Below are positions 2,399-33,000 of a stretch of DNA of 64,000 nucleotides, one piece after another. The stretch comes from Acidobacteria bacterium RIFCSPLOWO2_02_FULL_65_29 (GTDB lineage Bacteria > Acidobacteriota > Vicinamibacteria > Vicinamibacterales > CAVVIG01): NCBI GenBank assembly GCA_001767435.1, contig MEKT01000037.1:25840-89839 (forward strand), read 5' to 3'. Position numbers and translations under genes: made by a program. Every line of letters begins with the position of its first letter. Within the stretch, counting starts at the first letter, position 1. A model generated the notes under the pieces. The model did no database searches. It had not been told where the DNA came from and was given only the letters and a program-made list of their open reading frames with translations.

Positions 2399-2474
2399 GG
2401 CGGTCTATTATGATTGGCTGCGGTTCATTTTCGTGGCGCCGGCTCAGGTTGTTGAGGCCCAGGGGAGTACAACA

Positions 2475-2627
2475 ATGGGACCACGGGGACTCGGAGACGT
2501 TGCGGAGGCGGAGCATCGAGAGGTCAGCGCGCTCGACCACCCGCTGAACAGCTCGTACGTCCGCGTGCTGATCATCGAGGTGGTCCTCGTCGTGCTGCTC
2601 TTCCTCCTCGGACGGATGTTCCGGTGA
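2475..2627 (+). CDS. Possible 50-aa single-pass membrane peptide upstream of the symporter
   Basis: ATG at 2475 preceded by aggggag (2461-2467). The C-terminal half is hydrophobic (VLIIEVVLVVLLFLLG). It ends 22 nt before the symporter start. No family recognised. Confidence 0.3.
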   Translation: MGPRGLGDVAEAEHREVSALDHPLNSSYVRVLIIEVVLVVLLFLLGRMFR

Positions 2628-2649
2628 GCGGCCGCCGACCGTCGTAAAG

Positions 2650-6006: not shown

Positions 6007-6017
6007 GGAAGCGTTCC

Positions 6018-14311: not shown

Positions 14312-14815
14312 ATGCACATCAAGTCACCAGGTCGTGTTGGCACAACGCTTGATGAGTTGACCGCCTTGAGTCATCCGACTGTTCATGCCGTGCCGATGAG
14401 CGCTCTCGTACCTCACATTCGCGTCCGCGATGGCGATCGAGCTTCCACCGGCAAGGCAAGCGGTTCGGACGCCGAGTCGGTGCGAGCGGAGCTGAAAGCG
14501 ATGCTGGCGATCATCGACGCCTTCGTGAGCGTCCCGGACGAACGAATCCGCGCGAGGATGCTGGCCTGGACGTGCGAACGTTTTGGGGGAAGTTCAGGAA
14601 CGACGCCACGAGGCGCCACTGAATCGCCGTACGCACAAACTGCGCCGGTTGCCTCTCGGCCCGGTACGCAAGCGAAGCAGGAGCAGATATCAGTCGAGGG
14701 CCTCGAAGCTCTGTTCCACGAAGGCCGGCCGGGTCCAGGGCGATTTCCGCCGCCCACGTACCGGCGCCGGCGTCTTAGACCGACGCTGATGCTCCGATTC
14801 CGGTGGTGGACGTGA
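14312..14815 (+). CDS. Hypothetical protein (weak)
   Basis: Only the ORF supports it. Locally lower GC, no recognisable motif. Internal starts are possible (for example MSALVPH). Confidence 0.3.
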   Translation: MHIKSPGRVGTTLDELTALSHPTVHAVPMSALVPHIRVRDGDRASTGKASGSDAESVRAELKAMLAIIDAFVSVPDERIRARMLAWTCERFGGSSGTTPRGATESPYAQTAPVASRPGTQAKQEQISVEGLEALFHEGRPGPGRFPPPTYRRRRLRPTLMLRFRWWT

Positions 14816-14908
14816 GGGTCAGGCGACCTAGGCCTGTCCCACGAGCCAGATTCGGCCGATAACTTGCTGCGGGTTGAGTTCTAGTCTGCACCGCCTCCGC
14901 TCACGACG

Positions 14909-17161
14909 ATGAGCAGCCTCTGTCGTGATTCCACTCCCGACCTGGTGGGCCGCGCGGGCCAGGCCCGCGGACCGCTTTCGACGCACGCCGTCCACAAGGA
15001 CGTACACATTCTCGATCTCCTGGCGGTCATCTATCGGTACCGGCGCATGGCCTTCTCGGTCTTCATCTTGACCACGATCGCCCTGATGATCCAGGGCTAC
15101 TCGGGCGTCCGGTTGTACCAGGCTAAAGCGCAGCTCCTGATCGAAGACGAGCGCTCGACGGCGATGCCGGGCATTGCGACCGGCCAGTACTACGAGGATC
15201 CTGTCCCCTACTACAACACGCAGCACCGTATCTTGCGAAGCCGCGAGCTCGCGCGGCGGGTCGTGAGGCGCCTGCAGCTCGGAACACATCCCGAGTTCAA
15301 TGGCACCGCGACGCCTCCCGTCACACTCGTGACGGCGGTACGAGCGGCGGCCGCGCGGGCGCTGCGGGGCCTGACCTTGTTGTCCGCGGCTGTCGAAGAG
15401 GAAGCGCCCACACCCGACGAGACCCCCGCTGAAGCGGCGCTCGTGGGCAACTTCCTCTCCCGGGTCGTCGTCACACCGGTCCCTGACAGCAAGCTGGTGG
15501 ACGTGTTCTTCACGGCGGCGGACCCCGCGGTGACGGCTCTGGCGGCCACCACGCTCGCCGAGGAGTACGTCGCGCAGAATCTCGAACTGAAGCAGCAGAG
15601 CACGCAGAACATGCTCGAGTGGCTCGAGAACGAAGTGGCGGCCCAGCAGACGAAGGTCGAGCAGAGCGAGCGCGATCTCGCGGAATATCGCGAGATGGAA
15701 AACGCGATGTCGCTCGACGACAAGAACAACATCGTCGTGTCGCGTCTCAACGCACTCAACGAAGCGAGCATTAGGGCTCGCACGGTTCGGATCGAGAAGG
15801 AATCGGTCAACAACCAACTCAAGGCCATCCGCGACACAAGGTCGGTAGACGCCATTCCGGTCATCACACAGAATTTGCAGATTCAGGCGCTCAGGAATCA
15901 ACTCGGTGATTTACAGCGCCAGAAAGCCAATCTCACCGAGCGCTATGGCGACAAGCACCCCGAGATGGTGAAAGTCAACGCCCAGCTTGCCGACGGGCAG
16001 CGTCAGCTCGACGTGGGGACCGCGAAGGCGCTCGAGTCGGTCAGGAACGAATACGAACGTGCGCTGATCGAGGAGCGGACACTCGCCGCCCATCTGGAGG
16101 AAGCCAAGCGAGACGCGCAGGATCTGAGCCGTAAGAGCGTCGGCTACAACGTGTTGGAACGCGAGGCGAAAAGCCATCGCACGGTCTACGAGTCGCTCCT
16201 GCAGCGCACCAACGAGTTGCGCGTGTCGAGCAACAGCCGGGCGAACAACGTTCGGCTTGTCGAGCGGGGTGAAGTGCCGGGAAGTCCTGTGACCCCGTCG
16301 GGCCGGCGCACCTGGGGCCTGTCTGTCGTGGTGGGGTTGTTCGCCGCCATCGCCGTCGCCTATGGCCTCGATTACATGAACGACACCGTCAAGACGCCCG
16401 AGGACGTCACGCGGTTTCTGAAAATGACCTTCCTCGGTCTCGTGCCGTCGGTCCGCGGCGACAAGCATCCGCTGATGGCCTCGTGGGACACACCGAAGCA
16501 CTTCGGCGAAGCGTTCCGAAACCTGCGCACAGCGATCATCGCGCTGTATCCGGGCGACGGGCCGAAGACCATGGCCGTGACGAGCGCGCAGCCGCTCGAA
16601 GGCAAGACGACGACCGCGTGCAATATCGCGTTGGCGTTGGCCTACGGCGGAATGCGAGTCCTCTTGATCGACGCCGATCTACGCCGGCCCGGTCTACACC
16701 TGTCGCTCCGTCTGACAAACGAACGGGGGCTGTCGCACGTCCTGGGCGGGCGGGCTCGTCTACGCGACGTCATCCAGCGCACTGTCGATCTGAACCTATT
16801 TGCGATCACCGCCGGTCCCACACCGTCCGAGCCGTCGGAGCTGCTGGCTTCGGAGCGGATGAAGATGCTCCTGAGCAGTCTGGCGCAGGGGCCATTCGAC
16901 TGGATCATCATCGATACCCCTCCGGTGCTCGGGGTGAGTGACGCCGTCGTCCTTACACCCTTGGTTACCGGCGTCACGTTCGTGGTCGGTGCCGAAATGA
17001 CGCGACGGCAGGTGGCTGAGCACGCAATCGAAACCATTCTGTCGAGCCGGCCAAAGCTGCTTGGCGTCGTGCTCAACAAGGTCGACTTCGCTCGGAACAA
17101 GTACTACTATTCACGCTACTACGGCCGGCAGTACGAGAACCACTACGCTGAAGCGGTCTAG
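14909..17161 (+). CDS. Polysaccharide co-polymerase / bacterial tyrosine autokinase (Wzc/GumC-type)
   Basis: Wzz-like N-terminal TM segment, a long coiled-coil periplasmic region and a second TM segment. Walker A SAQPLEGKTTTACNIA; C-terminal Tyr cluster NKYYYSRYYGRQYENHY. Confidence 0.85.
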   Translation: MSSLCRDSTPDLVGRAGQARGPLSTHAVHKDVHILDLLAVIYRYRRMAFSVFILTTIALMIQGYSGVRLYQAKAQLLIEDERSTAMPGIATGQYYEDPVPYYNTQHRILRSRELARRVVRRLQLGTHPEFNGTATPPVTLVTAVRAAAARALRGLTLLSAAVEEEAPTPDETPAEAALVGNFLSRVVVTPVPDSKLVDVFFTAADPAVTALAATTLAEEYVAQNLELKQQSTQNMLEWLENEVAAQQTKVEQSERDLAEYREMENAMSLDDKNNIVVSRLNALNEASIRARTVRIEKESVNNQLKAIRDTRSVDAIPVITQNLQIQALRNQLGDLQRQKANLTERYGDKHPEMVKVNAQLADGQRQLDVGTAKALESVRNEYERALIEERTLAAHLEEAKRDAQDLSRKSVGYNVLEREAKSHRTVYESLLQRTNELRVSSNSRANNVRLVERGEVPGSPVTPSGRRTWGLSVVVGLFAAIAVAYGLDYMNDTVKTPEDVTRFLKMTFLGLVPSVRGDKHPLMASWDTPKHFGEAFRNLRTAIIALYPGDGPKTMAVTSAQPLEGKTTTACNIALALAYGGMRVLLIDADLRRPGLHLSLRLTNERGLSHVLGGRARLRDVIQRTVDLNLFAITAGPTPSEPSELLASERMKMLLSSLAQGPFDWIIIDTPPVLGVSDAVVLTPLVTGVTFVVGAEMTRRQVAEHAIETILSSRPKLLGVVLNKVDFARNKYYYSRYYGRQYENHYAEAV

Positions 17162-17190
17162 AAGATCGCCTCCCACCGCGTATCGGGGCC

Positions 17191-17354
17191 TAGCAGCCCG
17201 TGGTGAAAGTCTGGCTGCATTCGACGGGCGATGCATCCTCGCCGGCTGCGTTGCTCCTCGCTCACATACTCCCGGTATGCTCGGTCGTCGCGCCTTGCCG
17301 GCGAGGCGCCTCGCCCGTCTCGGTGCGACGCCAGACTTTCGCCACAGGCTGCTA
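17191..17354. mobile_element. MITE-like palindromic element, copy 1 (160 bp flanked by TA)
   Basis: Terminal inverted repeats gcagcccgtggtgaaagtctggc / gccagactttcgccacaggctgc, with internal arms also complementary. About 150 of 160 nt are identical to the copy at 22917-23076. Confidence 0.6.
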
Positions 17355-17404
17355 ATGGCAGACGTCTCGCCCGCCCGTGTCATGGCTCGCGACAGGAACG
17401 CTCG

Positions 17405-17433
17405 TTGACACGGCGCGCCGCCGGCTCTATATT
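17405..17433 (+). promoter_or_regulatory. Near-consensus sigma70-type promoter for the radical SAM operon
   Basis: TTGACA (17405-17410), exactly 17-nt spacer, TATATT (17428-17433). It lies about 110 nt upstream of the first operon ATG. Confidence 0.5.
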
Positions 17434-17544
17434 CAGCGCCCTGGTGATTTCTCGACACCCGTGGTCATCGTTGTGTTTCGGCGACACGGACGAGTGACAA
17501 GACGCGCGCAGTGACGCGGGACGAGATCCCGAGGTGGGCACAGG

Positions 17545-18522
17545 ATGAGCGTCCGATCCGTTCCGGGCGACGCGCTGGACACGATGCGCCGCACTGCGAT
17601 GACTCGCTCGCTGTTGGGACGGTTTCCATGGGCCGGCCAGTGGGAGCTGACATGCCGCTGCAACCTCAGATGTGTGATGTGCTACACGGACTGCTTCAAT
17701 ACGTCCGCACACGTCAGGCAGGAGCTCGCCACCGAGGACATCGTTCGTATTCTCGATGAACTGCAGGAAGCCGGATGCGTCGAGCTGACGTTCACCGGAG
17801 GCGAGCCGTTGTCGCGGCCCGATTTTCTGACAATTTACGGAGCCGCACACGAGCGCGGGTTTGTCCTCACCGTCTTCACCAACGGTACGTTGATTACGCC
17901 GGCCGTTGCCGACTGCTGGGCGCTCGCCCGGCCCAGGAGCGTCGAGATTTCTGTCCACGGTGTGTCGGCCCGGGTCTTCGACGGTGTGACTCGAGTTCCT
18001 GGATCGCTCGAGCGCTGCTTGGCGGGCATCGAGCTGGTGATGAGGCGGCGGATTCCAGTCGTTTTGAAAACGGTGGGGCTGATTTCGAATTGGCACGAGA
18101 TTCTGGCGATCAAACAGTTCGTCGACTCGCTCGGCGGCGCGACGTGGCGGTTCGGCCAGTACTTGCGTGACGACCTCGCTGGCACGAGTGCTCCGTTTCA
18201 GTTTCAGCTTCCCGAGGCGAGACTGCGGACGCTCGAGCAGCAGGACCGCGAGCTCTGGGAAGCCAAGTGCGGCGAGATCGCCTGGTCCGAGTCGATCGCG
18301 CACAAGACCTGCGGTGGCGGGCAGCTGACCTTTCACATCGACGCCTACGGCCAGCTTCAGCTGTGTTCGAACAATAGGCGAGGTGGCTACGACCTGCGCG
18401 CCGGCTCATTCCGTGCCGGCTTCGACGAGGTCCTGCCAACCTTGCCCTGTCAAGGCCGAACCAGGACTCATCCGGAGACCATGCCCCTGCACGTCACGCG
18501 GCCGCGGCGGACGGCGTCGTGA
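17545..18522 (+). CDS. Radical SAM protein A (C-terminal auxiliary-cluster region reduced or disrupted)
   Basis: CX3CX2C in ELTCRCNLRCVMCY and a GGEPL SAM-binding motif. Paralog of the ORFs at 20201 and 22218. Only CGGG...C...C remains in the C-terminal region. Confidence 0.85.
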   Translation: MSVRSVPGDALDTMRRTAMTRSLLGRFPWAGQWELTCRCNLRCVMCYTDCFNTSAHVRQELATEDIVRILDELQEAGCVELTFTGGEPLSRPDFLTIYGAAHERGFVLTVFTNGTLITPAVADCWALARPRSVEISVHGVSARVFDGVTRVPGSLERCLAGIELVMRRRIPVVLKTVGLISNWHEILAIKQFVDSLGGATWRFGQYLRDDLAGTSAPFQFQLPEARLRTLEQQDRELWEAKCGEIAWSESIAHKTCGGGQLTFHIDAYGQLQLCSNNRRGGYDLRAGSFRAGFDEVLPTLPCQGRTRTHPETMPLHVTRPRRTAS

Positions 18523-18537
18523 ACTCGAGGATTCTGA

Positions 18538-20220
18538 GTGCCAACATCGGACGAGTCTCAAAGCAGGATAGCTCGCGTAGGTGTTGAACCCGTGCAGGAT
18601 ATCCGAACGGTCGAAAACCACGATGCGGCGTATGACATCTGGAAGGCCGCTGGCGCTCGAAACCGAGTTCTGGTTCATGTCGACGGGCACGTCGACTTCG
18701 AGTGGATGAACGATCACGTTGCCGATGAGCTTCTGGCCGCGCGCAGCTCAGTGGAGATCCAGCGGCTGCTTGCCGAGACGAGCGCCTGGCATTTCGACGA
18801 ACGGCCGTTGCGCGAACGGGTCACCCCCGCGAATTTCATCTATCCGGCGATAAAGGAGGGTCTCGTTCGCGAGTTCATCTGGATCATGCCCGATGCCTTC
18901 TGGGCAAGCCCCGCAGCACGTCGCGTGATTCGCGATGGTTTGGAGCAGACACTGCGCCGGGGCTCGCCAGAGGCCGGCCCCCTACGCGTGTCCAACGGCG
19001 GCATCCGTTTTCGTCTGCTGGGGTGTCCTGTGACCGCGTGTACGCTCGCCACTTTGCCTCGCATCACCGAGCCGGTGCTGCTCGATATCGACGTCGATTA
19101 TCTCCTCACCACGAATCCGGCGGGGCCGGCCCCGTACTTCCAGCGCGAGCCGGCCGAGCCGTGGCTGTGGCCCAGCGCGTTCTTCCGGCGCCTCAGGTCG
19201 ACGCGTCTGAAGACGGACCTGCTGACCATCGCGTACTCCGTGGACGACGGTTTCACGCTGCTTCGCTACAAGTACTTTGGCGATCTGCTGCGACGCGCGC
19301 TCGGCGAGGCGTCCGAACGCGTGAGCGACGCCCCGGTTTCCGGGAGCGCTGCCGAGGCGTTCGATCACGTGAGCCGAAGCCTCTCCGCTCACGACATGCT
19401 CTCGACCGGTCGCTGGTGGCGAGAAATGGTGCGTCGAGATCCTTCCTATCGCTCGGTCTACGCGATCCCTGGATGGCGGGAAGAATGCGCTGGACGCTGG
19501 GACGCCGCGCTCGACATCTACCAGCGAATGATTGAGATCGATCCGGAATGGCACGTGCCGCATCTGGGAAGGGGTCGCGCGCTCTGGCAATTTGGCCGAT
19601 ATGCGGAGGCGGAAACGGCTTTCGAAGCGGCAGCCTCGCGGAGCTCCCGAGCGACGTCAGCCACGTACTGGCTGGGTCTTTGCCGATTTCGCCGCCAAGA
19701 TCTCGAAGGGGCCTCACGCGCCTGGACCGACGCGGTTCGAGCCGACCCACGCGATGGCTCGAGCCTGCATGGTTTGGCCTGCGTGGAGGCTCAACAAGGG
19801 CAGGCGAGAGCTGGCGGCGCCCGGATTGCTCGAGGAGAACGCCGGCAGTGGAACCGGAGACGAAAGGGACTATCTCACATGACGGACCTCCACGATCCGC
19901 TCGGCACGCGCTATGAGCATGAGCCAAGCATCGTGACCCGCCGCGTCGCCGGCGAGGTCATCCTCGTGCCGACGCGCCAGATGAGCGGAGACGCTGCCCT
20001 TTTCACACTGGACGAAGTGGCAGCTTTTCTCTGGGAACGGTTGGACGGGCAGAGGACCGGCAAGGACCTCGTCGCGGCTCTGGAGTCGTCATATGCCGCT
20101 GAACCGGAACAGGCCGCCGCTGATGTGCGCACCTTTCTGGAGCAGCTCGAATCAATTGACGCAGTGCGGCGCGTGTCGGAGTCCCGCCGGGCGACGAATC
20201 ATGGCCCGGCCTCTCGCTGA
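18538..20220 (+). CDS. Multidomain ORF: UPF0489/arginase-deacetylase-like N-domain, TPR repeats and a C-terminal PqqD-type (RRE) domain
   Basis: Uninterrupted 560-codon frame. N-terminus VENHDAAYDIW...LVHVDGHVDF resembles the UPF0489 signature. TPR-like helices span aa about 290-420. The last 113 aa (from ATG 19879, preceded by aaaggga) are PqqD-like (VAGEVILVP...LFTLDEVAAFLWERLDGQRTGKDLVAAL). Confidence 0.7.
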   Translation: MPTSDESQSRIARVGVEPVQDIRTVENHDAAYDIWKAAGARNRVLVHVDGHVDFEWMNDHVADELLAARSSVEIQRLLAETSAWHFDERPLRERVTPANFIYPAIKEGLVREFIWIMPDAFWASPAARRVIRDGLEQTLRRGSPEAGPLRVSNGGIRFRLLGCPVTACTLATLPRITEPVLLDIDVDYLLTTNPAGPAPYFQREPAEPWLWPSAFFRRLRSTRLKTDLLTIAYSVDDGFTLLRYKYFGDLLRRALGEASERVSDAPVSGSAAEAFDHVSRSLSAHDMLSTGRWWREMVRRDPSYRSVYAIPGWREECAGRWDAALDIYQRMIEIDPEWHVPHLGRGRALWQFGRYAEAETAFEAAASRSSRATSATYWLGLCRFRRQDLEGASRAWTDAVRADPRDGSSLHGLACVEAQQGQARAGGARIARGERRQWNRRRKGLSHMTDLHDPLGTRYEHEPSIVTRRVAGEVILVPTRQMSGDAALFTLDEVAAFLWERLDGQRTGKDLVAALESSYAAEPEQAAADVRTFLEQLESIDAVRRVSESRRATNHGPASR

Positions 20221-21298
20221 AGAGCAGTACGGTCAGTTCAGCGCCCGCGTCTGCAGTCGCACCATCGCCGACGCGCAACCGACTCGTGTCCAGTTCGAGC
20301 TGACCTACAGGTGCAATATCCATTGCGTGCACTGCTACACCGACCCCTTCAACACCCTGGACGCTGTCGGGCGTGAGCTCGATCTGCACGAGATCTCGAG
20401 GATCTTTGACGAGCTGGCTGATGCGGGTGTGCTGTGGATGACGATGACAGGCGGTGAAGCCCTCGTGCATCCTCAGTTCCGGCGGATCTATCAGGAAGCC
20501 AAACGCCGGGGATTCATCATCAGCCTCTATTCGAACGGGACGACGGTTTCCGAGAGCCTCGCGGACTTCCTTGCCGCGGACCCGCCGTTCACGATTGACG
20601 TGAGCTGCCACGCGGCCACGAGCGGAACCTTCGACAGGATCACCCAAGTCTCCGGTTCCTTCAATCTGTTTCAGCAGGGCGTTGGTCGGCTGATGGCGAG
20701 AGCGTTGCCGCTCACGATCAAGACGAAGGCGATGACGACAAACCGGCACGAGCTCTCGCGGATCAAGACGCTGGTGGAAGACCTCGGGCTCGACTTCCAT
20801 GTCTTCACGACGATTCATCCACGTCTGAACGGGGACCTGACGTCCACCCACTACCGGCTGACACCGCGAGAGATCATCGATCTCGAGGTGGGAGAGACAG
20901 CCGATGGCTGTGAAGGTGTGTGCGGCTCGCGCGATCGGGCCGGTGCCAACACCCTGACAGAGCCTCCCTCCGATGATCGGTTGTTTCGCTGCGGGTGCGG
21001 GACCAACACCTGCACGATCAATCCCTACGGGGTTCTGCGAGCCTGCACCCATACCACCTGGCCTTCGATCGACCTGAACACCACGCCATTTGCGCAGGCG
21101 TTCGCGCGCCTTGTCAACCAAGTGCGGAATGCCCGATACACAGGCGCGTCGCCGTGCGCGGCGTGTACGGCCCATGTCTTCTGCCACAAGAACCCGGCAA
21201 TGGCCGTGCACGAAGCGGGTGCGATGGAGGCGCCGGTGACCCATTACTGTGAAGTGGCCTTTGGCAAAGCCGCGCGGCTTGGGCAGACGTGCAAATGA
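20201..21298 (+). CDS. Radical SAM/SPASM protein B
   Basis: ELTYRCNIHCVHCY cluster motif. Cys-rich tail FRCGCGTNTC...C...CAACTAHVFC...C. The start at 20201 (MARPLAEE) overlaps the previous ORF by 20 nt. Confidence 0.85.
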   Translation: MARPLAEEQYGQFSARVCSRTIADAQPTRVQFELTYRCNIHCVHCYTDPFNTLDAVGRELDLHEISRIFDELADAGVLWMTMTGGEALVHPQFRRIYQEAKRRGFIISLYSNGTTVSESLADFLAADPPFTIDVSCHAATSGTFDRITQVSGSFNLFQQGVGRLMARALPLTIKTKAMTTNRHELSRIKTLVEDLGLDFHVFTTIHPRLNGDLTSTHYRLTPREIIDLEVGETADGCEGVCGSRDRAGANTLTEPPSDDRLFRCGCGTNTCTINPYGVLRACTHTTWPSIDLNTTPFAQAFARLVNQVRNARYTGASPCAACTAHVFCHKNPAMAVHEAGAMEAPVTHYCEVAFGKAARLGQTCK

Positions 21299-22221
21299 CG
21301 GTTCGATTCCAGTTCGGACCGGCGACGATCGATCTTGTCGCTGACCGCTGGCCCGAGGATGTGACGGCCGGGCACTACGGGCCGTTCGTGTCCAACCCGG
21401 AGGGCCCCGCCGACCTCACCATCCACGTCCATCGCGATCGAGCGCCCAGTTGCGGCCGGGTTTCGCCCGCCGCGCAACTACCGACCAACTGGGCCCTGTA
21501 CCGGTGCCGATCGGGCTATCGCCTGGAAATCCTGGAGCAAGTCACATTCGCACCACGGCAGATAGTCTTGCTGGATCGATCATTGAGCCGCGCTGACGTC
21601 TACGCGGCGTCGGGAGCTGGGCTCCCAGGGTATCCGCCGGGGAGCTGGTGTCTGGCTCTGGTGATGAATCCGTTCGTGCAGTGGTGGCTCACGGCCTTCC
21701 TCGCGCTTCGAGCGCGGGGCGTGTTGCTGCATGCTTCCGCGGCGGCCTTCAATGGGGCGGGCCTTGCGTTTGCCGGACCTTCCGGCGCGGGCAAGACGAC
21801 GACCGTTCGGAGGTGTCGAGATCGCGCCGGGGCGGTCGTGCTCAACGACGAGCGGATCATCGTGTGGCGAACCGCGGAGGGGGTCAAGGTGGCTGGCACG
21901 CCCTGGCACGGGGAACTCCCCGAGGTTGCCGCCTTGGTCGTACCTCTGGTCGGGCTCTTCATGCTGACCAAGAACGCAACGAACCGCTATCTCCCGTGGC
22001 CGCCGCCACGTATGGTGGCGGGCATCATGTCGGAAGCGTTTCTCCCTATCTGGAGCGTCGAGGCCATGGCGGGCCTGCTCGAAGCGGCGGAGCACATCGT
22101 ACGCGCGGTTCCGAGCGGCGAGCTGCAGCTCGCGAACGACCGCGACGTCGCGGACTACCTGCGGCGCTTCGTGGATGTCGGGCCCAGCACGCCGTGGGCG
22201 GTCGCCGTGGGGTCGCCATGA
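21295..22221 (+). CDS. HPr-kinase-like P-loop protein (HprK-related, ScmC-like)
   Basis: LLHASAAAFNGAGLAFAGPSGAGKTTT matches the HprK C-terminal-domain P-loop context. ATGA overlap with the upstream stop; GTG alternative at 21289. Confidence 0.75.
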   Translation: MTVRFQFGPATIDLVADRWPEDVTAGHYGPFVSNPEGPADLTIHVHRDRAPSCGRVSPAAQLPTNWALYRCRSGYRLEILEQVTFAPRQIVLLDRSLSRADVYAASGAGLPGYPPGSWCLALVMNPFVQWWLTAFLALRARGVLLHASAAAFNGAGLAFAGPSGAGKTTTVRRCRDRAGAVVLNDERIIVWRTAEGVKVAGTPWHGELPEVAALVVPLVGLFMLTKNATNRYLPWPPPRMVAGIMSEAFLPIWSVEAMAGLLEAAEHIVRAVPSGELQLANDRDVADYLRRFVDVGPSTPWAVAVGSP

Positions 22222-23468
22222 ACGAGATATCGTTCGAGCGCCTGGTCTTTGGCGTGGACGACGAAGCCCGGGCCGCCCCGCATCTCGTGCAGGCGATGGT
22301 GGAGCTCACCTATGGCTGCAACCTGCGGTGTGTTCACTGCTACAACCCGACGCACGACGCGCAAGACGAGCTGCGGACCGAGGCTGTCCTGCGGATCCTA
22401 GACGAGCTGGCCCACGAGGGATGCCTCCGCGTCGGCTTTACCGGCGGCGAGCTCTTCGTTCGTCGCGATACCTTCGACATCCTGCGTCACGCAAAACGGC
22501 TCGGGATGATCCTCACGATTCTCACCAATGCGACGATGATCACATCGAAGATCGCGGATCGTCTTGCCGCGCTCGATCCCCACCAGGTCGACGTCTCGGT
22601 CTACGGCGCAAGCGCCGAGACGTATGAAACCGTCACGAGAGTCCCCGGCTCCTTCCTCCGATTTTTGAGCGGTCTGGATCGGCTCGTCGAGCGGCATGTT
22701 CGCGTGTTGCTCAAGCTCGTCCTGCTCACCGTGAACGTCCACGAGCGCCGCCAGATGCAAGAGCTTGCGATGAGCCGAAATCTTCGTTACCAGATGGCGA
22801 CCGACGTGCACCCGAGGGTTGACGGATCGATCGAGCCGCTGGCCTATCGTCTCTCGCCAGCGCAAGCGTTCGAAGTCTGGCGCGAGTCTGCCGAGCCGAT
22901 CCCGTCAGCGAGCCTAACAGCCCGTGGTGAAAGTCTGGCTGCATTCGACGGGCGATGCATCCCCGCCGGCGGCGTTGCTCCTCCCTCAAATACTCCCGGT
23001 ATTCTCGGTCGTCGCGCCTTGCCGGCGGGGCGCCTCGCCCGTCTCGGTGCGACGCCAGACGTTCACCACGGGCTGCTAACGTCTGGCGGTTCCCAGATGC
23101 GGGGGGCTTCCCGTGCGAAAGCAGAGGAACCCTCCTGTGGATTCGATGGGCGGGTGTTTCACTGTCGTTGCGGAAAATCGAATGTGGCCGTGACGCCCCA
23201 CGGCAGGCTCAATCTGTGCCTCTCGGTTTATCACCCACGATACGACCTCACACGCGGCAGCCTGAAAGACGGTTGGAAGCAGCTCGTGGATCTGGTTGCG
23301 TCGGCCAGACCAGGACCGGCCTACGAGTGCAATCGGTGCTCCCTCACCGAGCATTGCTCGCGCGGCGTGGGCGATAGCTGGCTCGCGACCGGCCAATTCG
23401 ACAATCCATGTATGCCGCACTACCGGGAGCTGGCCGAGCGCAAGGCAAGTTTCCTCAGGGAGCGGTAA
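22218..23468 (+). CDS. Radical SAM/SPASM protein C carrying an in-frame MITE-derived 54-codon insert
   Basis: ELTYGCNLRCVHCY cluster motif. SPASM-like tail HCRCG...C...ECNRCSLTEHC...C. ATGA overlap with the upstream stop. The insert lies at 22915-23078, in the linker between the core and the SPASM region. Confidence 0.85.
   Translation: MNEISFERLVFGVDDEARAAPHLVQAMVELTYGCNLRCVHCYNPTHDAQDELRTEAVLRILDELAHEGCLRVGFTGGELFVRRDTFDILRHAKRLGMILTILTNATMITSKIADRLAALDPHQVDVSVYGASAETYETVTRVPGSFLRFLSGLDRLVERHVRVLLKLVLLTVNVHERRQMQELAMSRNLRYQMATDVHPRVDGSIEPLAYRLSPAQAFEVWRESAEPIPSASLTARGESLAAFDGRCIPAGGVAPPSNTPGILGRRALPAGRLARLGATPDVHHGLLTSGGSQMRGASRAKAEEPSCGFDGRVFHCRCGKSNVAVTPHGRLNLCLSVYHPRYDLTRGSLKDGWKQLVDLVASARPGPAYECNRCSLTEHCSRGVGDSWLATGQFDNPCMPHYRELAERKASFLRER
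22915..23078. mobile_element. MITE-like palindromic element, copy 2, inside a coding region
   Basis: Same 160-bp element as 17193-17352, flanked by TA. Element plus one TA is 162 bp (54 codons), with no stop in the host frame. Confidence 0.6.
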
Positions 23469-23482
23469 CCGGAGGTCTTCTC

Positions 23483-23701
23483 ATGGAGCACGAACGCGCG
23501 CGGAAAAAGTACCACCCACCGACGATCACTCGGGTCGTCTTGCGGCCCGAGCAGGCCATTCTGAGCCAGTGCAGCACGATGGGGATGTCCGCTCGAGACC
23601 TCGGCAGCCCGAGCGTGATGACGTGTGCGTTCGGACCCGACAATTGCCGCGCGTGGGCCGGCACCGGCAGGTTTGTCGACAGCGGGTATCGCCCCTCGTA
23701 A
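23483..23701 (+). CDS. Candidate RiPP precursor peptide (72 aa)
   Basis: GGAGG at 23471-23475, 7 nt before the ATG. Peptide: MEHERARKKYHPPTITRVVLRPEQAILSQCSTMGMSARDLGSPSVMTCAFGPDNCRAWAGTGRFVDSGYRPS. It has a YxxPxI leader-like motif, 3 Cys and a C-terminal Ser. Confidence 0.55.
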   Translation: MEHERARKKYHPPTITRVVLRPEQAILSQCSTMGMSARDLGSPSVMTCAFGPDNCRAWAGTGRFVDSGYRPS

Positions 23702-23703
23702 GG

Positions 23704-24180
23704 ATGAGAGGGCTCCTGACGCGGCCGCGGCATCCAAGCGGGATTCCTGAACGGACGGGACGAATCTCCGACTATCTCGAGGTGGCGGATCTTCTCGTTT
23801 GCCAGCGAAGATTGCGCTTCCGAGTCTCGTCGGACAGCATGGTGCCCAGTCTGCGACCGGGGGATCTCGTGCGGCTCCGCCCTGTGTTCGACCGGCTCGC
23901 CGCGGGCGATCTCGTCGCGATGCGCCTGGGGGACCGCATCATCTGTCATCGCGTCACGCGCTGCTACCCTGACGAAGACGGCCGACAGTGGGTGGTGACG
24001 AAAGGCGATCGGAGCGCTGCCGAGGATTTCCCCAGTTCCGCAGCCCTGATCGTCGGTCGGGTCACCGAGGTGATTCGACCGCCGGTCTGGAATCGCCTCA
24101 TGTGGCGCACGCGCGGCTTCCTGTGCGCGCTGTTGGCGCGCCGCCGCAAAGCGTCTGAACGTCAGAGGTCACCGTCTTGA
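23704..24180 (+). CDS. S26B-type (SipW/Sec11-like) serine peptidase, candidate leader peptidase
   Basis: Motif series SDSMVPSLRPGD ... GDLVAM ... CHRV ... TKGDRSAAED parallels the archaeal/SipW-type signal peptidase boxes. It starts 2 nt after the precursor stop. Confidence 0.65.
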   Translation: MRGLLTRPRHPSGIPERTGRISDYLEVADLLVCQRRLRFRVSSDSMVPSLRPGDLVRLRPVFDRLAAGDLVAMRLGDRIICHRVTRCYPDEDGRQWVVTKGDRSAAEDFPSSAALIVGRVTEVIRPPVWNRLMWRTRGFLCALLARRRKASERQRSPS

Positions 24181-25052
24181 AATCGCCGAGCGAGCCTCGC
24201 CCAGCTCAGGCCGCTGCCGAACCCACCGAATGGGCGCGACCCTGGCGCCTTGAAGCCACAAGGCGACTGCTACTTGCCGCGCGGGGGTTGGAGTTTTTCA
24301 GCCTCGCGATCCCGCGTCCGGACGATTTGATCGGATCGGCGCACCGGTTCTACGCCAAGCCGGAAGTGGTCACCGGCATGGCGGAGAGTGCCGATGCCGA
24401 CCTGTATCCGCACGAGAAGGCCGCTCTGGAACGATTCGCTCCTCACCCGACCGATGCGCTCGTGCTGGGTTGCGGCGCGGGGCGGGAAGCGATCGCGTTG
24501 GTGAAGCGGGGCTGGAGCGTCGTGGGCCTGGACGCCGGGCCCGCGCTGATTGAGGCCGCGAAGCTGAACGCCGCTCGAGCCGACGTCCGCATCGACTTCC
24601 GCTGCCACGACATCACGCGGCCATTTCATGTCGATGTCGATCGCGTGTTCGACCTCGTCTGCATCTTCGGCGTCGTTTACAGCCTGATCCCGAGTCGTCC
24701 GCTGCGGGTGGCCACTCTCCGCACCTGTCGCACGCATCTGGCGCCTGATGGCGTGTGCGTCTTGGACTTTGCGGCCCGCGAGAACCCGACGAGCCCGCGC
24801 GAGCTTTGGGCCCACCGCTGGCGCCAGCGACTTGCTTGGGCGACCCGCGGAAATCGAGACTGTCAGATCGGTGACCACTGGTTCGCTGGCGTCCTCTGCA
24901 TGCACGCATTTGCCCATCCCGACGAAGTGTCGAAAGAGGCCGAGGAGGCCGGTTTCCATACTGAGATGTTGCGGGACCCTGGCTACCCGCCGGTCGCGGT
25001 GTTGACACACCGCCCTCACCCTCACGAAATGTCGTCTCGAGACGCCGACTGA
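24177..25052 (+). CDS. Class I SAM-dependent methyltransferase
   Basis: Motif I VLGCGAGREA and post-I VVGLD. TTGA overlap with the upstream stop. An internal ATG (MAESAD) is an alternative start. Confidence 0.8.
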   Translation: MKSPSEPRPAQAAAEPTEWARPWRLEATRRLLLAARGLEFFSLAIPRPDDLIGSAHRFYAKPEVVTGMAESADADLYPHEKAALERFAPHPTDALVLGCGAGREAIALVKRGWSVVGLDAGPALIEAAKLNAARADVRIDFRCHDITRPFHVDVDRVFDLVCIFGVVYSLIPSRPLRVATLRTCRTHLAPDGVCVLDFAARENPTSPRELWAHRWRQRLAWATRGNRDCQIGDHWFAGVLCMHAFAHPDEVSKEAEEAGFHTEMLRDPGYPPVAVLTHRPHPHEMSSRDAD

Positions 25053-25092
25053 CCGGCTCCCACACGTCGCGTCACCGGTCACGGTTCCGGCT

Positions 25093-26244
25093 TCAGAAGA
25101 TGTCGAGAGGCGAGCGACGGCGAAGCCACTTCCCCACGCCGCGGACGATTCGACGGGCGTACAGCAGTGGGAGAAGCACGGCGATTGAGGTGTTGTTGGA
25201 ACGCAGGACGTATTCCGCGGAAGGAAAAAGATGCTGGTAAACGAGTCGAAGTCTGTCTGGCCACCTGGGAAGGGCCCGCAGGTCGGAGATGAACACATCC
25301 GCCTTGCGCCGGCCATTCTTCAAGAATGCCGCCGATCGCTCGACCTCGCCGAATGGTGTCTTCGCGATGAGATCGCTGAGCACAAACGAAGGGACCGGCG
25401 CGCCGCATGAGCGCTGGGCAGCCCGCAGCCCGCTCGCGCAGATCGCCCGGACGCGCCTCTGGCCGGCCAACTCCATGAAACGGTTCCACTGCTGTTCGGA
25501 CATGCCGGCGGCGAGTAGATGGATGTCGTACAGCCAGATCAGCCGGCGCGTGTTGTTGTGGTGGGCAACCCGATGAACGCATGCGAGCAACAGGGCGTGG
25601 ACCGCCGACAGGCCCCGCGCGCCCGCGCCGAGATAGGCGACCTGCACGGCCTCACAGGCGAGGTCGTCAAAGCTCGCCAGCTGTGCAAACGTTTGCGGCT
25701 CGGCGAGGCGCCAATGAATGTCGAACTCATACTTGAGGCCAAGGCGAGCGTCGCGCTGATAGAGAGTCTGATAGGTGACGAGTTCGCCGCTGACGCGTAC
25801 GCCAGGGCAGTAACCGAGATCGTTCATGAGACGACCGGCCGGCTGGCGATCGGATTCTCTGATCAGCAGATCGACGTCCGAGCAGGGCCTCAGGCAGGGA
25901 CTGGGATAATGAGTGTACGCCAGGTGCGTACCCTTGAGCAGCAGCGGATGGACTCCGCCCTCGAACAGCGCGCGTAGCACCCGCCTCAGTTCGACAAAGC
26001 GAAGCGACTCGGAGAACACCTGTGCGCGCGTCTCGGCCGCGAGGATCGTCCGCACGCGGTCGGGCCATTCTTGGCCCTCGCCGCGGTGGTAAAGCAGATG
26101 AGCCAGCAATGACTGGATGCCGTGCGCCCTGGCAGCCTGGATGAAACGCTCCTCCATGTCGCCGTTCCAGCTGGCGGGCCACCGTACAGGGTTGCCGCGC
26201 AGCGCTGCGGCGAGCAGAGCCTCGATCACGATGGGCCTTGTCAA
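25093..26244 (-). CDS. Uncharacterised nucleotidyltransferase family protein (PF14907-like)
   Basis: 383-aa ORF with LLLKGTHLAYTHYPSPCLRPCSDVDLLI and a later DIHW motif, typical of that family (from memory). Convergent with the operon. Confidence 0.65.
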   Translation of the reverse strand: MTRPIVIEALLAAALRGNPVRWPASWNGDMEERFIQAARAHGIQSLLAHLLYHRGEGQEWPDRVRTILAAETRAQVFSESLRFVELRRVLRALFEGGVHPLLLKGTHLAYTHYPSPCLRPCSDVDLLIRESDRQPAGRLMNDLGYCPGVRVSGELVTYQTLYQRDARLGLKYEFDIHWRLAEPQTFAQLASFDDLACEAVQVAYLGAGARGLSAVHALLLACVHRVAHHNNTRRLIWLYDIHLLAAGMSEQQWNRFMELAGQRRVRAICASGLRAAQRSCGAPVPSFVLSDLIAKTPFGEVERSAAFLKNGRRKADVFISDLRALPRWPDRLRLVYQHLFPSAEYVLRSNNTSIAVLLPLLYARRIVRGVGKWLRRRSPLDIF

Positions 26245-26429
26245 CTCAGCGTATTCAAGATGCGCGTCGAATCACTCAGCGTAACCGGCGTCAAGAGCAT
26301 ACGATTGTTTGGGCCGATGAGCACTCATGCTTGATCTACACCCGCGGGCTACTGGGTTTTTCCCGCGGGCTGCTAAGATAGGATTCGACCAAGATCGCAG
26401 TGATCGTCTATTCAGGGAGGATGACCATC

Positions 26430-26879
26430 ATGATGCTGCGTCAGATCGTGCCGCTTGCCGGTGTGCTCGCCCTTTCCGTGGCCGTGTTCGCCCAGGGCCC
26501 GCGGCGCGACGGCAGGTGGGAAGTGACCACACAAATGGAAATGGCCGGGATGCCGGGCGGACGCGGCATGCCCGCGATGACCGCCACTCAGTGCATCACC
26601 AAGGAGCAGGCCGACGACCCGCAGAGGATGACGCCGCAGCCGCCGCAGCGCGGGGGCGGCCAGAACGACTGCAAGGTGTCGGACTACAAGATCGTCGGCA
26701 ACAAGGCCACGTGGACGATGAAGTGCACCACGCCGCAGGAGATCGACGGCACGGGCGACGTGACGTACGGCAACGACACGTACGAAGGCACCATGACGAT
26801 GAACATGGCGCGCGGCGGCCAGGCCATGCAAATGACGATGAAGATGAACGGCAAGCGGCTTGGAGACTGTACGCAGTAG
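26430..26879 (+). CDS. DUF3617-like secreted/lipoprotein-type protein
   Basis: GGGAGG at 26415-26420. Signal peptide MMLRQIVPLAGVLALSVAVFAQG. Conserved Cys spacing and a C-terminal KRLGDC. Confidence 0.7.
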   Translation: MMLRQIVPLAGVLALSVAVFAQGPRRDGRWEVTTQMEMAGMPGGRGMPAMTATQCITKEQADDPQRMTPQPPQRGGGQNDCKVSDYKIVGNKATWTMKCTTPQEIDGTGDVTYGNDTYEGTMTMNMARGGQAMQMTMKMNGKRLGDCTQ

Positions 26880-29445: not shown

Positions 29446-29919
29446 ATGGAGGCACGAATGGGCAAAGACGTGATGGTCATGGATCGGAGCGCCGGCGATT
29501 CGAGCATCAACGTGGGCCGTGTCATTGCCGGCGGACTTTTGGCCGGACTGGTGATCAACATCAGCGAGGCCATCCTCAACCTGTTCGTCGTCGCGGCCGA
29601 CATGGAGGCCGTACTCAAGGAGCGCAACCTCCCGCCGCTCGGCATGACGCCGATCGTCGGGTTCATCGTGTTCGGGTTCCTGCTCGGCATCGGCACCATC
29701 TGGCTGTACGCGGCGATGCGCCCGCGGCTGGGGCCAGGCGTCAAGACGGCGGTGATCACCGCTGTCGTCGTGTGGTTGCTGGCCTATGTCTATGCGGGTC
29801 TGGGCATGAGCTTGATGGGGCTGTTTCCCATGGGATTGATGACCTTTACGCTCGTGTGGGGCCTGGTCGAGGTCGTCGCCGGCGCGGTCGCCGGCGCATG
29901 GGTGTATCGCGAATCGTAG
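29446..29919 (+). CDS. Integral membrane protein, unknown function
   Basis: Four hydrophobic segments after MEARMGKDVMVMDRS. Start chosen after the intergenic hairpin; nearby ATGs are alternatives. Confidence 0.6.
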   Translation: MEARMGKDVMVMDRSAGDSSINVGRVIAGGLLAGLVINISEAILNLFVVAADMEAVLKERNLPPLGMTPIVGFIVFGFLLGIGTIWLYAAMRPRLGPGVKTAVITAVVVWLLAYVYAGLGMSLMGLFPMGLMTFTLVWGLVEVVAGAVAGAWVYRES

Positions 29920-30089
29920 CGTCTCACCGGGCCATATCCGACGCGATCGTGGACCGATGGATGACAGCCGAGTGGTCGACGATGGACTTTCTACGCCTTG
30001 GTCTCGTGACGTATCACGATACGGACGTTCGAGCGAGCACGTTCGGCGCGACGTTCAGTTGGATTCGTTCGGGCAGTGAGCGTTCGGGA

Positions 30090-33000
30090 ATGCCTCTGCT
30101 GGCGATGGCTTCGGTGACACTGCTCTTTGGGGCATTACTGTGTGCCGACCCGGCGTCGGCACAAGTCGTGGCCAGCGGCAAGTCGCTGACGGTGACCACC
30201 GCGAACGCCGTCGCGACGTTCAACGGACCCGACCTGGTCGGGTTCGTGAACTCCCTCACCAACGAAACCTACTTGAAGAACCCGAGCGCCGGCGAACTGG
30301 CGCAGGTCGACACCATCGCGTCCACAGGACAGGCCTTGCAGTCGTCGAACTGGACGATCGGATCGGAACCCGGGACGGGCCTTCCGCTCGCCACCATCAC
30401 CAGCAGCGATTCGGTCCGCACATTCACGTTGACCGTCAAGATCGATCCGGCCAGCCAGGAAATCGTCCTCCGCTGTGGCGCGAGCGTGTCGACGGCGGGA
30501 CTGCGCGGTGCCTCCTGGAGCATCGCGGGCCTGGATTTTACATCTGGCCGGCTGATCATCCCGGCGAACGGCGGTCGGATATTCGACCGGGCCCATCCGG
30601 ACATCGGCACGTCCATGGAATATCCGAACAACTGGCACGCGCAGATGGCGGTGTACGAATCCGCGCTCGGCAGCTTTGTGATGTATTCCACCGACGCGCA
30701 GATGTTTTTCAAGCGGCTGCGCCTGTCGAGCCGCGGCGATTCGACCGTGGACGTCGCCGTGGCCACCGAAGCGGTGGCGCCGTTCCCCTCGGCCACGACC
30801 GTTCCGGCCGTGGAGTGGCGGCTCAAAGCATTCGCCGGCGACTGGCGCGTATCGGCGCGGCTGTATCGAGACTGGCTGCTGGCCAATCGTCCGCCCGTGT
30901 CGAACGCCGCGCATCCGTGGGTCTCGGATATCCGTGCCGTCGTGGGCGTTTACCGGACGGATGCGAGCCTTCTCACGCCGCTGGCCGCCCTGCTCGTTCC
31001 GTCGCAGACGCTGCTGTACTTGGTCGATTGGCGACAGGATTCCTACGACATCAATTACCCCGACTACACGCCGCGCGCCGGCGTTGCGAGCTTCGTCTCG
31101 AGCGCTCACGCCCTGGGCTTCAAGGTCATGCTTCACACGGACCTGATAGGCGTGTCGCCTGGGAACGCCGATTACGCGGCCATGCAGCCGTATCAACTAC
31201 GGACACCGGAAACACTCGACTTGATGGGCTGGCAATGGGACCGTCTCTCGGATCCACAGCGCTTTGCCTTCATCGACCCGGCGGCGCCTTCATTCAGAGC
31301 TTTGTGGATTTCCAGGATGGGCGCGGCCATCGCCGCGGTCGCTCCGGACGCGTTGCACCTGGATATTTCCGGGTACACGTTCAACGACGGGAACGGACCC
31401 ATTGCGGGCCTCACATATCCGCAGGGCACGGATCAATTCCGCAAGGACATCATCGCGGCGTTTCCCAGTGTCGCTCTCGGGGGCGAAGGCGAAAACGACA
31501 TCTCGTATCGCTACGAGTCGTTCGCCCAGATCGATTGGAACGCTCCAAACAACCCAGGGCATCCGATTGCGACGTTCCTTTTCAGTCCGCAGGTCCGGTA
31601 CTACGGGTACCTCGGTCAGCACTTGGCACAGGACCCCGGCTTCAAACGTGATCTCCTCGAGTACGAGCGCCGCGCCATTCTGCCGCAGTTGCCAATCGGT
31701 TCGGCAAGCGATCTGGACATGAGCAATGCGGACAACGCGCGCCTCATTGGCCTGATCCAAAGCTGGCAGACTCACGCGTTTCAACCGGCGTGGACGGCCG
31801 ACTGGACGGGCGCGTTGGTGCGCTACGAGGGTCTGGCGGGGTCGACGGCGACGCTCACCGACTCCGGAGGACTGACGACGCTGACGGCGGCGGGCTCGAC
31901 GCTGTTTCAGCTCGCGCACGACGTGAACCAGGTGACGAGCGGATCGTTCCTCAACGCCTGGCCGGCCTTCGACAACACGACGCTGTACGGGTTGAACCCG
32001 ACGAGGCTGTACTTTCTCGATCCTGTGCCGCGGCCCGGGACGACCCATGCGACGTCGCTGCCGGCCGGCGTTCAGATCGGTTCGGGCACGGTCACCAGCA
32101 CGTCGTTCGCTCACATCGAGGTCGCGCCGGCCTCAGTGCCGCTATTCGATTTCATCGGAGGCCTGATTCAGGCGCACAGCGGTGTCCGGTTTCAGGGTGT
32201 CGACACGCCGCTCGGCAACGGCGCGAATGCATCGCCGGGTACGATCACCGCGGGAGGCGTGACACGCTCTGGGCTCCTGCTCCAGCCCCCCTTCCAGAGT
32301 CAGGTCGGCGGGGAGTCCTTTGTCGAGTATTCCGTGCCGGTGCCGACCAACGCCACGATGCAGTTCTCCGTTGGCGTCGACGACGGCGGTACGTGCACGG
32401 ATGGCGTGACGTTCCGCATCACGGCCAACGGGTCTGAGCTCTGGCACCAGCACGTGAACCGCGGCGGGTGGCAGGACATCCTCCTGAACGTCGCGGCCTG
32501 GAGCGGAACGACGGTCGCGCTGCGTCTGATCAGCAACCCCGGGCCGGCCGGCAACCCGCACTGCGACCGGTCGTTGTGGAGCCAACTCACCCTCGCCGTT
32601 CCACCGACCGAGTCCATCGCCGTGCCGTTGGCTCTCGCAACCGGTTCCGTCATCGCTGGCTTCGACGGAGATGGGACGCTGTCATCTGCTGTGCCGCTCT
32701 CAGCCACGGTCAGCAACGTACGGGTGCCGGGGGCCTTTACCGTCTTTACTCAAGTGGGCGCCGCGGTGTCCGCCGGAACGAACCTCGCCAGCCTGCCGTT
32801 CGAGGTTTGGGGATCGTCACATGGGGAGAGGGCCATACCGGGCGGCATTTTTGGATCAGGCTCGATCGGAACCGCCACCTCGGGTGGCGTGTCGAAATCG
32901 CAAACGATCTGGGCCCATCCCCCGAACGGCGGAACGACGATTCTGTCCTGGGTGCTTCAGTTGCCGGTCGGCCCGCTGCGCCTTGGCTTGAGCGTCGGTT

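Follow-up and report, generated by a model that had tools for sequence, protein, structure and literature searches.

A small peptide gene in an acidobacterial radical-SAM/PqqD cluster, the probable precursor gene of an uncharacterised cross-phylum RiPP family

What is encoded by a small open reading frame (ORF) that is wedged between a radical S-adenosylmethionine (SAM) enzyme gene and a peptidase gene? The question was raised by a 72-residue ORF in a 64,000-nucleotide stretch of DNA (hereafter the window) from Acidobacteria bacterium RIFCSPLOWO2_02_FULL_65_29, for which an original prediction, made from the letters of the DNA, had proposed a candidate precursor peptide. By the computational analysis described here, the ORF very probably codes for the precursor, or substrate, in an uncharacterised family of peptides that are made by the ribosome and modified after translation (RiPPs), a family that extends across phyla. 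This assignment to the radical-SAM/PqqD cluster is carried by linkage in 11 loci, by a split into leader and core, and by the near-constancy of a YxxPx motif (145/149), three Cys residues (124/149) and a C-terminal Ser (138/149). All coordinates are collected in Table 1.

The length of the ORF is in itself no proof of coding, because the GC-rich window is crowded with spurious frames (the region from 14 to 33 kb is overlapped by 122 ORFs with 50 residues or more), and a chance ORF or a non-coding spacer was considered as an explanation for that reason. On re-reading, the translation that had been quoted was found to be identical, and Y10-H-P-P-T-I15, Cys30, Cys48, Cys55 and the C-terminal Ser72 were all found in it. 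The GGAGG directly behind the stop codon of radical SAM C is present and is the only complete GGAGG before a start of the operon, the other starts having GAGG or AGAGG at most, or nothing; the start codon of the peptidase gene likewise lies 2 nucleotides beyond the stop of the ORF. The ORF had been called unannotated, which does not hold, as it is already listed by NCBI as the hypothetical protein A3H97_01205 of this bacterium. The GC content at the three codon positions in the ORF frame is 0.56, 0.58 and 0.82 (GC3 0.82) and resembles that of the neighbouring genes, and no RNA family of Rfam was matched within 17000-26500.

Homologues of the peptide were obtained by three kinds of search. From 5.8 billion proteins, 11 homologues with 62-72 residues and 50-75% identity were recovered by word-indexed search, and 22 columns are invariant in the alignment of the 11 close homologues; a profile search of all 1.84 billion representative proteins gave 139 clusters at E<=1e-3, nearly all with 55-85 residues; and a pattern scan of one genome per species gave copies in metagenome-assembled genomes of Omnitrophota, Elusimicrobiota, Nitrospiraceae and Deltaproteobacteria. 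At the nucleotide level, the eight codons of EQAILSQC vary mainly synonymously across phyla, including switches between the TCN and AGY codons of Ser, and the proportions of synonymous and non-synonymous differences between the ORF and one acidobacterial homologue are 0.63 (pS) and 0.27 (pN), respectively. Protein-level conservation over five phyla with synonymous variation, together with the 139 representative homologues, the strong ribosome-binding site, the fitting codon-position GC and the lack of an Rfam match, speaks against a chance ORF; that explanation is judged to be already refuted by conservation and is left with practically no probability. The ORF is best taken as a real, translated gene under selective constraint. 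No second copy of it was detected in the window (tblastn with nine family members matched only 23483-23698), and no Pfam or NCBIfam model was found for the window peptide, nor for 100 family members at E<=1.

The family as delimited here comprises about 140 clusters (at 50% identity) of peptides with 60-75 residues; motifs were counted over 149 sequences, column conservation was calculated over 100 members, and residue spacings were determined over 121 complete members. YxxPx[ILVMF] occurs in 145 of the 149 sequences, exactly three Cys residues in 124 and a C-terminal Ser in 138, most of the exceptions to the last appearing truncated or frameshifted; all nine peptides of the window and of the related loci L001-L007 end with Ser. 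The column entropy is low from K7 to S31, where conservation reaches 91% or more at each of Y10, P13, V18, L20, Q24, A25, L27 and C30, and is at least 2.6 bits over residues 32-47, so that a conserved leader and a variable core, for which the original prediction had suggested an alignment, can be told apart in the pattern expected of a RiPP precursor. Residues 7-31 behave as the leader, with the consensus K-x-Y-x-x-P-x-[ILV]-x-R-V-x-L-x-x-EQA[IV]LSxC-S. The remainder behaves as a variable core, in which the Cys 20 residues after the Tyr, the C-x(3-10)-C-[KR] pair and the C-terminal Ser are fixed.

The geometry of the peptide is strict at the leader and looser in the core. In 121/121 complete members the first Cys follows the Tyr at a distance of exactly 20 residues; the spacing from the first to the second Cys is mostly 14-15 residues and that from the second to the third is 3-10 residues, up to 17, with 13-17 residues beyond the third Cys, which is directly followed by K/R in 102/121. 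The fixed points in the core are C48, C55, the K/R behind C55, G62, D66-S67 and the terminal Ser, and a C-terminal motif [DN]-S-[AG]-x(1-4)-S is conserved. The T32-M33-G34 that had been put forward as a leader/core boundary was not borne out, with T in 46% and G in 9% of the 100 members. Two variants of the architecture were observed: the locus L003 carries tandem duplicated precursor genes (9720-9971 and 10001-10237, plus strand), each with five Cys residues and a longer core, and P0116 is a 136-residue protein that resembles two precursor units fused head to tail.

The genomic neighbourhood was compared over 11 loci with enough context in five phyla (the window, L001-L006, L008, L009, L012 and L013); P0120, P0104, P0138 and L007, the last of which ends 671 nucleotides upstream, were left out as too short or cut by the contig. 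In the window, the operon extends on the plus strand over about 17545-25052, with genes that overlap or are separated by gaps of a few bases, in the order radical SAM A, the 560-residue protein ending with a PqqD domain, radical SAM B, a P-loop protein, radical SAM C, the peptide, the S24/S26 peptidase and the methyltransferase, and the NTP_transf_5 gene converges on it from the other side. In all 11 loci a conserved small ORF stands beside homologues of the three radical SAM enzymes, as the original prediction had led one to look for, together with PqqD and the kinase-like P-loop gene. In the search for orthologues in seven genome loci, made by tblastn with the window proteins, each of the three radical SAM enzymes was found to have its own best-matching orthologue in L001-L006, where PqqD, the P-loop protein and the S26 peptidase also accompany the peptide; the methyltransferase and NTP_transf_5 each occur in four of these six loci, and L008 has a PRMT-like methyltransferase in place of the class I type. 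The same neighbourhood is present on the metagenomic contigs with P0008, P0012 and P0134. The gene order is shuffled between the phyla, namely Acidobacteria, Omnitrophota, Elusimicrobiota, Nitrospiraceae and Deltaproteobacteria.

The peptidase that follows the peptide gene bears on a second explanation, by which the ORF would encode a small secreted protein or lipoprotein, with L-S-x-C as a lipobox or signal-peptidase site and the S26 enzyme as an ordinary signal peptidase, and would be no substrate of the radical SAM enzymes. L27-S28-x-C30 does resemble a lipobox, and a homologue of signal peptidase I does adjoin the gene. A hydrophobic h-region is lacking, the best 10-residue Kyte-Doolittle mean being 0.65 on average and 1.65 at most in the 121 members; the leader is charged, the would-be -1 position of the lipobox is Q, V, T or P in many members, the linkage to PqqD and the radical SAM enzymes is invariant, and no membrane anchor is evident in the S26 peptidase. 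It is therefore highly improbable that the peptide is a lipoprotein or secreted protein of this kind. In eight orthologues of the S26 peptidase the S-M-x-P and C-H-R motifs are invariant, and the enzyme is a candidate leader peptidase for the precursor.

The PqqD domain of the 560-residue protein, matched by the Pfam scan at E 2.8e-16 together with TPR matches, is the only RiPP recognition element (RRE) in the window cluster. The AlphaFold2 model of this protein had a predicted local distance difference test (pLDDT) score of 85.7, and since Foldseek with the full-length model was swamped by TPR matches, a trimmed N-terminal sequence profile was used instead. With 13 members, this profile had as its sole match in the PDB the entry 8BRP, 'Peptide arginase' (OspR), with E 2e-13, and H47/D49/H51/D53 (HxDxHxD) and D183/D185/D187 (DxDxD) are invariant among the homologues of the domain. 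The N-terminal domain is, as judged by this match, a peptide-arginase homologue that has kept its metal-binding motifs. Peptide arginases are RiPP maturases of pfam12640 (PMC12703449), among them OspR, FlmR and OhkR, and the likeness of the present domain lies in its homology to OspR and in both metal-binding motifs. The difference is that it is here fused to TPR and PqqD/RRE and that the NCBIfam model for FlmR/OhkR is scored at 28.8 against a cutoff of 350 bits; the described arginases act on NHLP, N11P, SCIFF, SCCRRSCN and DD(I/V)LF precursors, unlike the present peptide type, and an arginase-TPR-RRE fusion is not mentioned in the 2025 paper on peptide arginases (PMC12703449). The window, L001, L002, L008 and L009 carry the arginase-TPR module, which is lacking in the Nitrospiraceae loci and L005.

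Two further observations were made on these domains. A tie between a C-terminal RPS of the peptide and the arginase domain was considered and rejected, as the Nitrospiraceae peptides end with RPS in loci lacking the arginase, and L001 and L002 have the arginase with peptides lacking RPS. Two or three separate PqqD genes are added to the fused one or replace it in related clusters, for example in L008 (5567-5869, plus strand; 10268-10561, minus strand) and in L012 (39-353 and 1327-1656, plus strand), and from these multiple PqqD genes, individual enzymes may have an RRE of their own.

All three radical SAM enzymes contain CxxxCxxC, and the orthologues of radical SAM A in L001-L006 share 46-55% identity. 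In the window, L008, L012 and L013 the best curated matches of the radical SAM enzymes (NirJ/AhbD, MftC, ScmE and StsB) fall 3- to 8-fold below the cutoffs of the respective families. The system resembles the sactipeptide and ranthipeptide systems (AlbA, StsB, PapB, CteB) in its Cys-containing core and in its radical SAM/SPASM maturases with seven auxiliary Cys residues, radical SAM C having StsB as its best curated match and radical SAM B aligning with PapB; chemically, it may be a sactipeptide or ranthipeptide system. It differs from them in having three distinct maturases, three Cys residues, an RRE that is not fused to the radical SAM enzymes, and scores far below the cutoffs (55.7 against 850 bits for AlbA and 42.8 against 340 bits for PapB; StsB in Table 1), and tailoring by a kinase, an NTP-transferase and an arginase is atypical of these classes.

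The same enzymes bear on a third explanation, namely that the peptide, in the manner of PqqA or MftA, gives rise to a cofactor or small fixed molecule, for which only a few of its residues would be cut out and the others lost. A separate PqqD with radical SAM/SPASM enzymes is the arrangement of the pyrroloquinoline quinone and mycofactocin pathways, radical SAM B aligns end to end with the MftC model (90 bits) as well as with PapB-type models, each below the cutoff, while other core residues vary, conservation is seen at the Cys positions and in [DN]-S-[AG]-x(1-4)-S, and an exporter gene is lacking. The cutoffs are far from being reached for either MftC (at most 90 against 265 bits) or PqqE (at most 74 against 381 bits), the spacing of the conserved core residues is variable (3-17 residues between the second and third Cys), unlike in cofactor precursors, the divergent tandem precursors of L003 and their five-Cys form suggest a diversifying product, and tailoring by a kinase, an NTP-transferase and an arginase is typical of peptide natural products. 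A cofactor precursor is for these reasons considered unlikely.

The P-loop protein of the operon was examined for its family and fold. Pfam PF27840 ('ScmC') is precomputed on its homologues (P0150-P0191), and this family was unreported in the Pfam-A scan even at E<=1, the Pfam versions being different; the NCBIfam models HprK_rel_B ('HprK-related kinase B') and ScmC gave weak matches. A fold search was needed because the search of the PDB by sequence, with the single protein or a seven-member profile, gave mostly generic P-loop matches, with HprK at E 0.03-0.7; Pfam Hpr_kinase_C was matched in three of seven orthologues, weakly (E ~0.02). The AlphaFold2 model had a pLDDT of 93, and the Foldseek matches in the PDB at E<=1e-3 were, with one exception, phosphoenolpyruvate carboxykinases (E ~2e-7) and HPr kinase/phosphorylases (E ~1e-4). 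By analogy with the kinases of phosphorylated lasso peptides, the kinase-like protein probably targets the last Ser of the peptide. Of the conserved features, the Ser at the end of the peptide tells the most, alongside the HprK-fold protein and NTP_transf_5. The S26 peptidase is fused to NTP_transf_5 in L001 (1906-3801, minus strand) C-terminally, with an extra middle region, and in L003 (12235-14010, plus strand) N-terminally; by this Rosetta-stone fusion the nucleotidyltransferase is linked to the removal of the leader.

In the phosphorylated lasso peptides, a homologue of HprK phosphorylates the precursor's C-terminal Ser on its side chain, as described for paeninodin and pseudomycoidin (PMC6993621, PMC8498205), and an 'uncharacterised NTP transferase', sometimes fused to the leader protease, adds hexoses to the Ser phosphate (PMC6993621, PMC8498205). 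The present system shares with these pathways (PadeA/PadeK of paeninodin; PsmA/PsmK/PsmN of pseudomycoidin) the YxxPx(L/I) leader, a PqqD-type RRE that is stand-alone or fused, a kinase or kinase-like protein with a fold resembling that of HprK, an 'uncharacterised nucleotidyltransferase' that in some cases forms one protein with the leader protease, and Ser as the last residue of the precursor; the fusions of nucleotidyltransferase and B2 protease reported from lasso clusters are mirrored here by those of NTP_transf_5 and the S26 peptidase, with a different protease. That YxxPx(I/L), PqqD, a kinase like HprK, an NTP transferase and Ser at the C-terminus co-occur in clusters of the paeninodin/pseudomycoidin type would also fit a lasso-peptide precursor, with the PqqD domain as the lasso B1 protein. 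Three radical SAM enzymes and an S26 serine peptidase, however, stand here in place of the lasso cyclase and the B2 cysteine protease, neither an Asn-synthetase-like cyclase nor a transglutaminase-type B2 protease being detected by the Pfam and NCBIfam scans of the window cluster or among the genes tabulated for L008, L009 and L012. A conserved penultimate Thr, Thr(-2), and a ring-forming Asp/Glu at core position 7-9 are missing as well, T32 and G34 having the frequencies given above, and the kinase-like protein belongs to Pfam ScmC and not to Hpr_kinase_C. A lasso peptide is on this evidence largely refuted already and very unlikely. Of the lasso connection that had been drawn from YxxPx(L/I), the motif itself stood, being nearly invariant, and a kinship beyond the motif did not, with cyclase and B2 protease lacking. 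By analogy, the system would correspond in its working to the tailoring part of a pathway for phosphorylated lasso peptides, yet without a lasso peptide.

A further comparison was made with the SynChlorMet (SCM) cassette, which likewise combines an HprK-like P-loop protein (ScmC), a relative of PqqD (ScmD) and paralogous radical SAM/SPASM enzymes (ScmE/ScmF). All its NCBIfam models were missed in the window (ScmC 20.5 against 125, ScmD 34.4 against 100, ScmE at most 87.2 against 400 and ScmF at most 68.8 against 400 bits), and likewise in L008, L012 and L013, with only the broader Pfam PF27840 being matched. The present cluster differs in having three radical SAM enzymes against two, and in its S26 peptidase, methyltransferase, NTP_transf_5 and, in part of the family, arginase. 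No literature was found on the SCM cassette, which is apparently known only in silico, and no paper describing the present system was found in the literature search.

For the RiPP precursor as the preferred explanation, the following course of maturation is proposed. The YxxPxI leader strand would dock on the PqqD/RRE of the arginase-TPR-PqqD protein and present the core to the enzymes, with the fixed 20-residue register positioning C30 and the core relative to them. The three non-redundant radical SAM enzymes, two with a full SPASM domain and one twitch-like, would install cross-links, likeliest Cys-derived thioethers of the sactipeptide or ranthipeptide kind, and in the branch of the window the fused arginase domain would turn at least one core Arg (R38, R56, R63, R70) into ornithine. 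The kinase-like protein would phosphorylate the C-terminal Ser, as PadeK and PsmK do on lasso precursors, NTP_transf_5 may then decorate the Ser phosphate in the manner of PsmN, and the methyltransferase would add a methyl group. The leader would be removed by the soluble SipW-type S26 peptidase, for which the small-x-small S28-x-C30 is offered as a guess at a possible site.

Several points weigh against this account or its parts. The chemistry of the radical SAM enzymes is a guess, the cutoffs of the curated maturase models being missed by all three, and cleavage at S-x-C, itself a guess, would leave the most invariant residue, C30, in the leader. The match between the number of Cys residues and that of radical SAM paralogs, which had been remarked on in the original prediction, holds in most loci and fails in L003, where five Cys residues per peptide go with three radical SAM enzymes; one Cys per radical SAM enzyme is thereby ruled out as a rule. 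The arginase is accessory, since the Nitrospiraceae and L005 clusters lack it. In sequence, the kinase-like protein resembles HprK only within the P-loop region, and its fold match is modest (TM score 0.3-0.56), so that it could be a phosphotransferase of other specificity or a non-catalytic ATPase. PsmN, with which NTP_transf_5 is compared, is taken by us to be a member of PF14907. No exporter gene is present in the cluster, many RiPP families with radical SAM enzymes have no known product, and the chemical steps proposed above are inferred throughout.

The surroundings of the cluster were also recorded. A gene of a Wzc-type polysaccharide co-polymerase/tyrosine kinase adjoins it in the window (14909-17161, plus strand) and in L005 (11701-12057, minus strand), and in the acidobacterial contigs L008 and L009 the cluster has Wzc/Wzy_C on one side and Bac_transf, GT4 and carbamoyltransferase genes on the other, i.e. 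it lies in an exopolysaccharide locus, whose genes in L008 are located at 230-3848 and 14550-20219; Wzc or exopolysaccharide genes were not found within 10 kb in L001-L004 or L006. A more speculative proposal, held to be improbable, is that the Ser phosphate of the cross-linked peptide is the attachment point for a sugar added by NTP_transf_5, and that the peptide primes, caps or anchors an exopolysaccharide or signals its control instead of being a free, antibiotic-like peptide. Such a peptide-glycan would explain the lack of an exporter, the adjoining Wzc (window, L005) and the nesting among Wzc/Wzy and glycosyltransferase genes (L008, L009) and, if true, would mean a pathway for ribosomal peptide-glycan conjugates that is common to at least two phyla.

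Pairs of M16 peptidases are leader peptidases in some RiPP systems. An M16 (insulinase/PqqL-like) pair is encoded 5-8 kb upstream of the operon (9370-10815 and 10901-12253, both minus strand); it was rejected as a candidate for the leader peptidases, lying on the opposite strand and separated from the operon by an MFS transporter gene and Wzc, and the related loci were not searched for M16. Farther upstream are a collagen triple-helix repeat protein (8265-9185, minus strand; E 5e-14) and a PilX_N/DUF7305 pilin-like protein (4507-6255, minus strand), and downstream of the cluster lies an ORF of 1866 residues, rich in Gly, Thr, Ser and Ala, with apparently repeated domains (29772-35372, plus strand). 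The promoter match in Table 1 overlaps a GC-rich hairpin that is followed by a T-rich tract (17411-17423).

Table 1. Coordinates in the window of the peptide gene, its elements and the genes of the cluster
Feature	Position	Strand	Remarks
Sigma-70-like promoter match	17405..17433	+	TTGACA-17-TATATT, 11/12; about 110 nucleotides upstream of radical SAM A; no more than a consensus match, of which chance alone would give one in the region
Radical SAM A	17545..18522	+	Pfam Radical_SAM E 2.8e-22; CxxxCxxC and three conserved auxiliary Cys 256, 274, 302 (twitch-like partial SPASM)
Three-domain protein, 560 residues	18538..20220	+	Peptide-arginase-like PF12640/UPF0489 (~20-260), TPR (~270-440), PqqD/RRE (~465-553)
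Radical SAM B	20201..21298	+	Full SPASM, seven conserved auxiliary Cys; start approximate, alternative ATG 20093
ScmC-family P-loop protein, PEPCK/HprK kinase fold	21289..22221	+	P-loop GPSGAGKTT 163-171, H148 and D187, all invariant
Radical SAM C	22218..23468	+	Full SPASM, seven conserved auxiliary Cys; best curated match StsB sactipeptide maturase, 102.4 against a cutoff of 625 bits
Shine-Dalgarno GGAGG	23471..23475	+	7 nucleotides upstream of the ATG, 2 nucleotides past the TAA of radical SAM C (23466-23468)
Probable precursor peptide gene	23483..23701	+	72 residues, stop within coordinates; ATG 23483, TAA 23699-23701
Codons Y10-H-P-P-T-I15, YxxPx(I/L/V) leader motif	23510..23527	+	Y in 98%, P in 99%, I/L/V in 99% of 100 members
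Codons E23-QAILSQ-C30	23549..23572	+	Most conserved block; leader/core junction probably here or just after
Codons C48 to C55, C-x(3-10)-C pair	23624..23647	+	Usually followed by K/R; C48 in 100%, C55 in 99% of 100 members
Codon Ser72, C-terminal	23696..23698	+	Ser end in 138/149 members
S24/S26 peptidase, archaeal/ER (SipW) signal-peptidase type	23704..24180	+	Peptidase_S24 E 1e-6; TIGR02228 sigpep_I_arch E 7.7e-9, below cutoff
Class I SAM-dependent methyltransferase	24177..25052	+	Methyltransf_25 E 5e-14; homologues in L001, L003, L004, L006, L012
NTP_transf_5 'uncharacterised nucleotidyltransferase'	25093..26244	-	PF14907 E 4e-41; also in L001, L003, L004, L005, L008

Sequence comparison supports an uncharacterised family of RiPPs that are modified by radical SAM/SPASM enzymes and accompanied by a tailoring set both conserved and unusual. 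If this is true, a new RiPP family of about 140 clusters at 50% identity would be present in Acidobacteria, Nitrospirota, Omnitrophota, Elusimicrobiota and Deltaproteobacteria, in which triple radical-SAM cross-linking would be combined with a leader and tailoring functions in the manner of lasso peptides (RRE, kinase of the HprK fold, nucleotidyltransferase and terminal Ser) and, in one branch, a peptide arginase would be fused directly to the RRE. Phosphorylation of a C-terminal Ser would then reach beyond the lasso peptides, a substrate open to testing would become available for ScmC, a family known in silico, and a SipW-type S26 enzyme would join the known leader peptidases. With its 20-residue register from Tyr to Cys and its three non-redundant radical SAM orthogroups, the family offers a clean system for how several radical SAM enzymes share one RRE-bound substrate. 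Because the producers are mostly uncultured, heterologous expression of the compact 8.7-kb operon is the practical route to it. The family is broad, compact and testable, and combines features that a RiPP specialist would not expect to find together.

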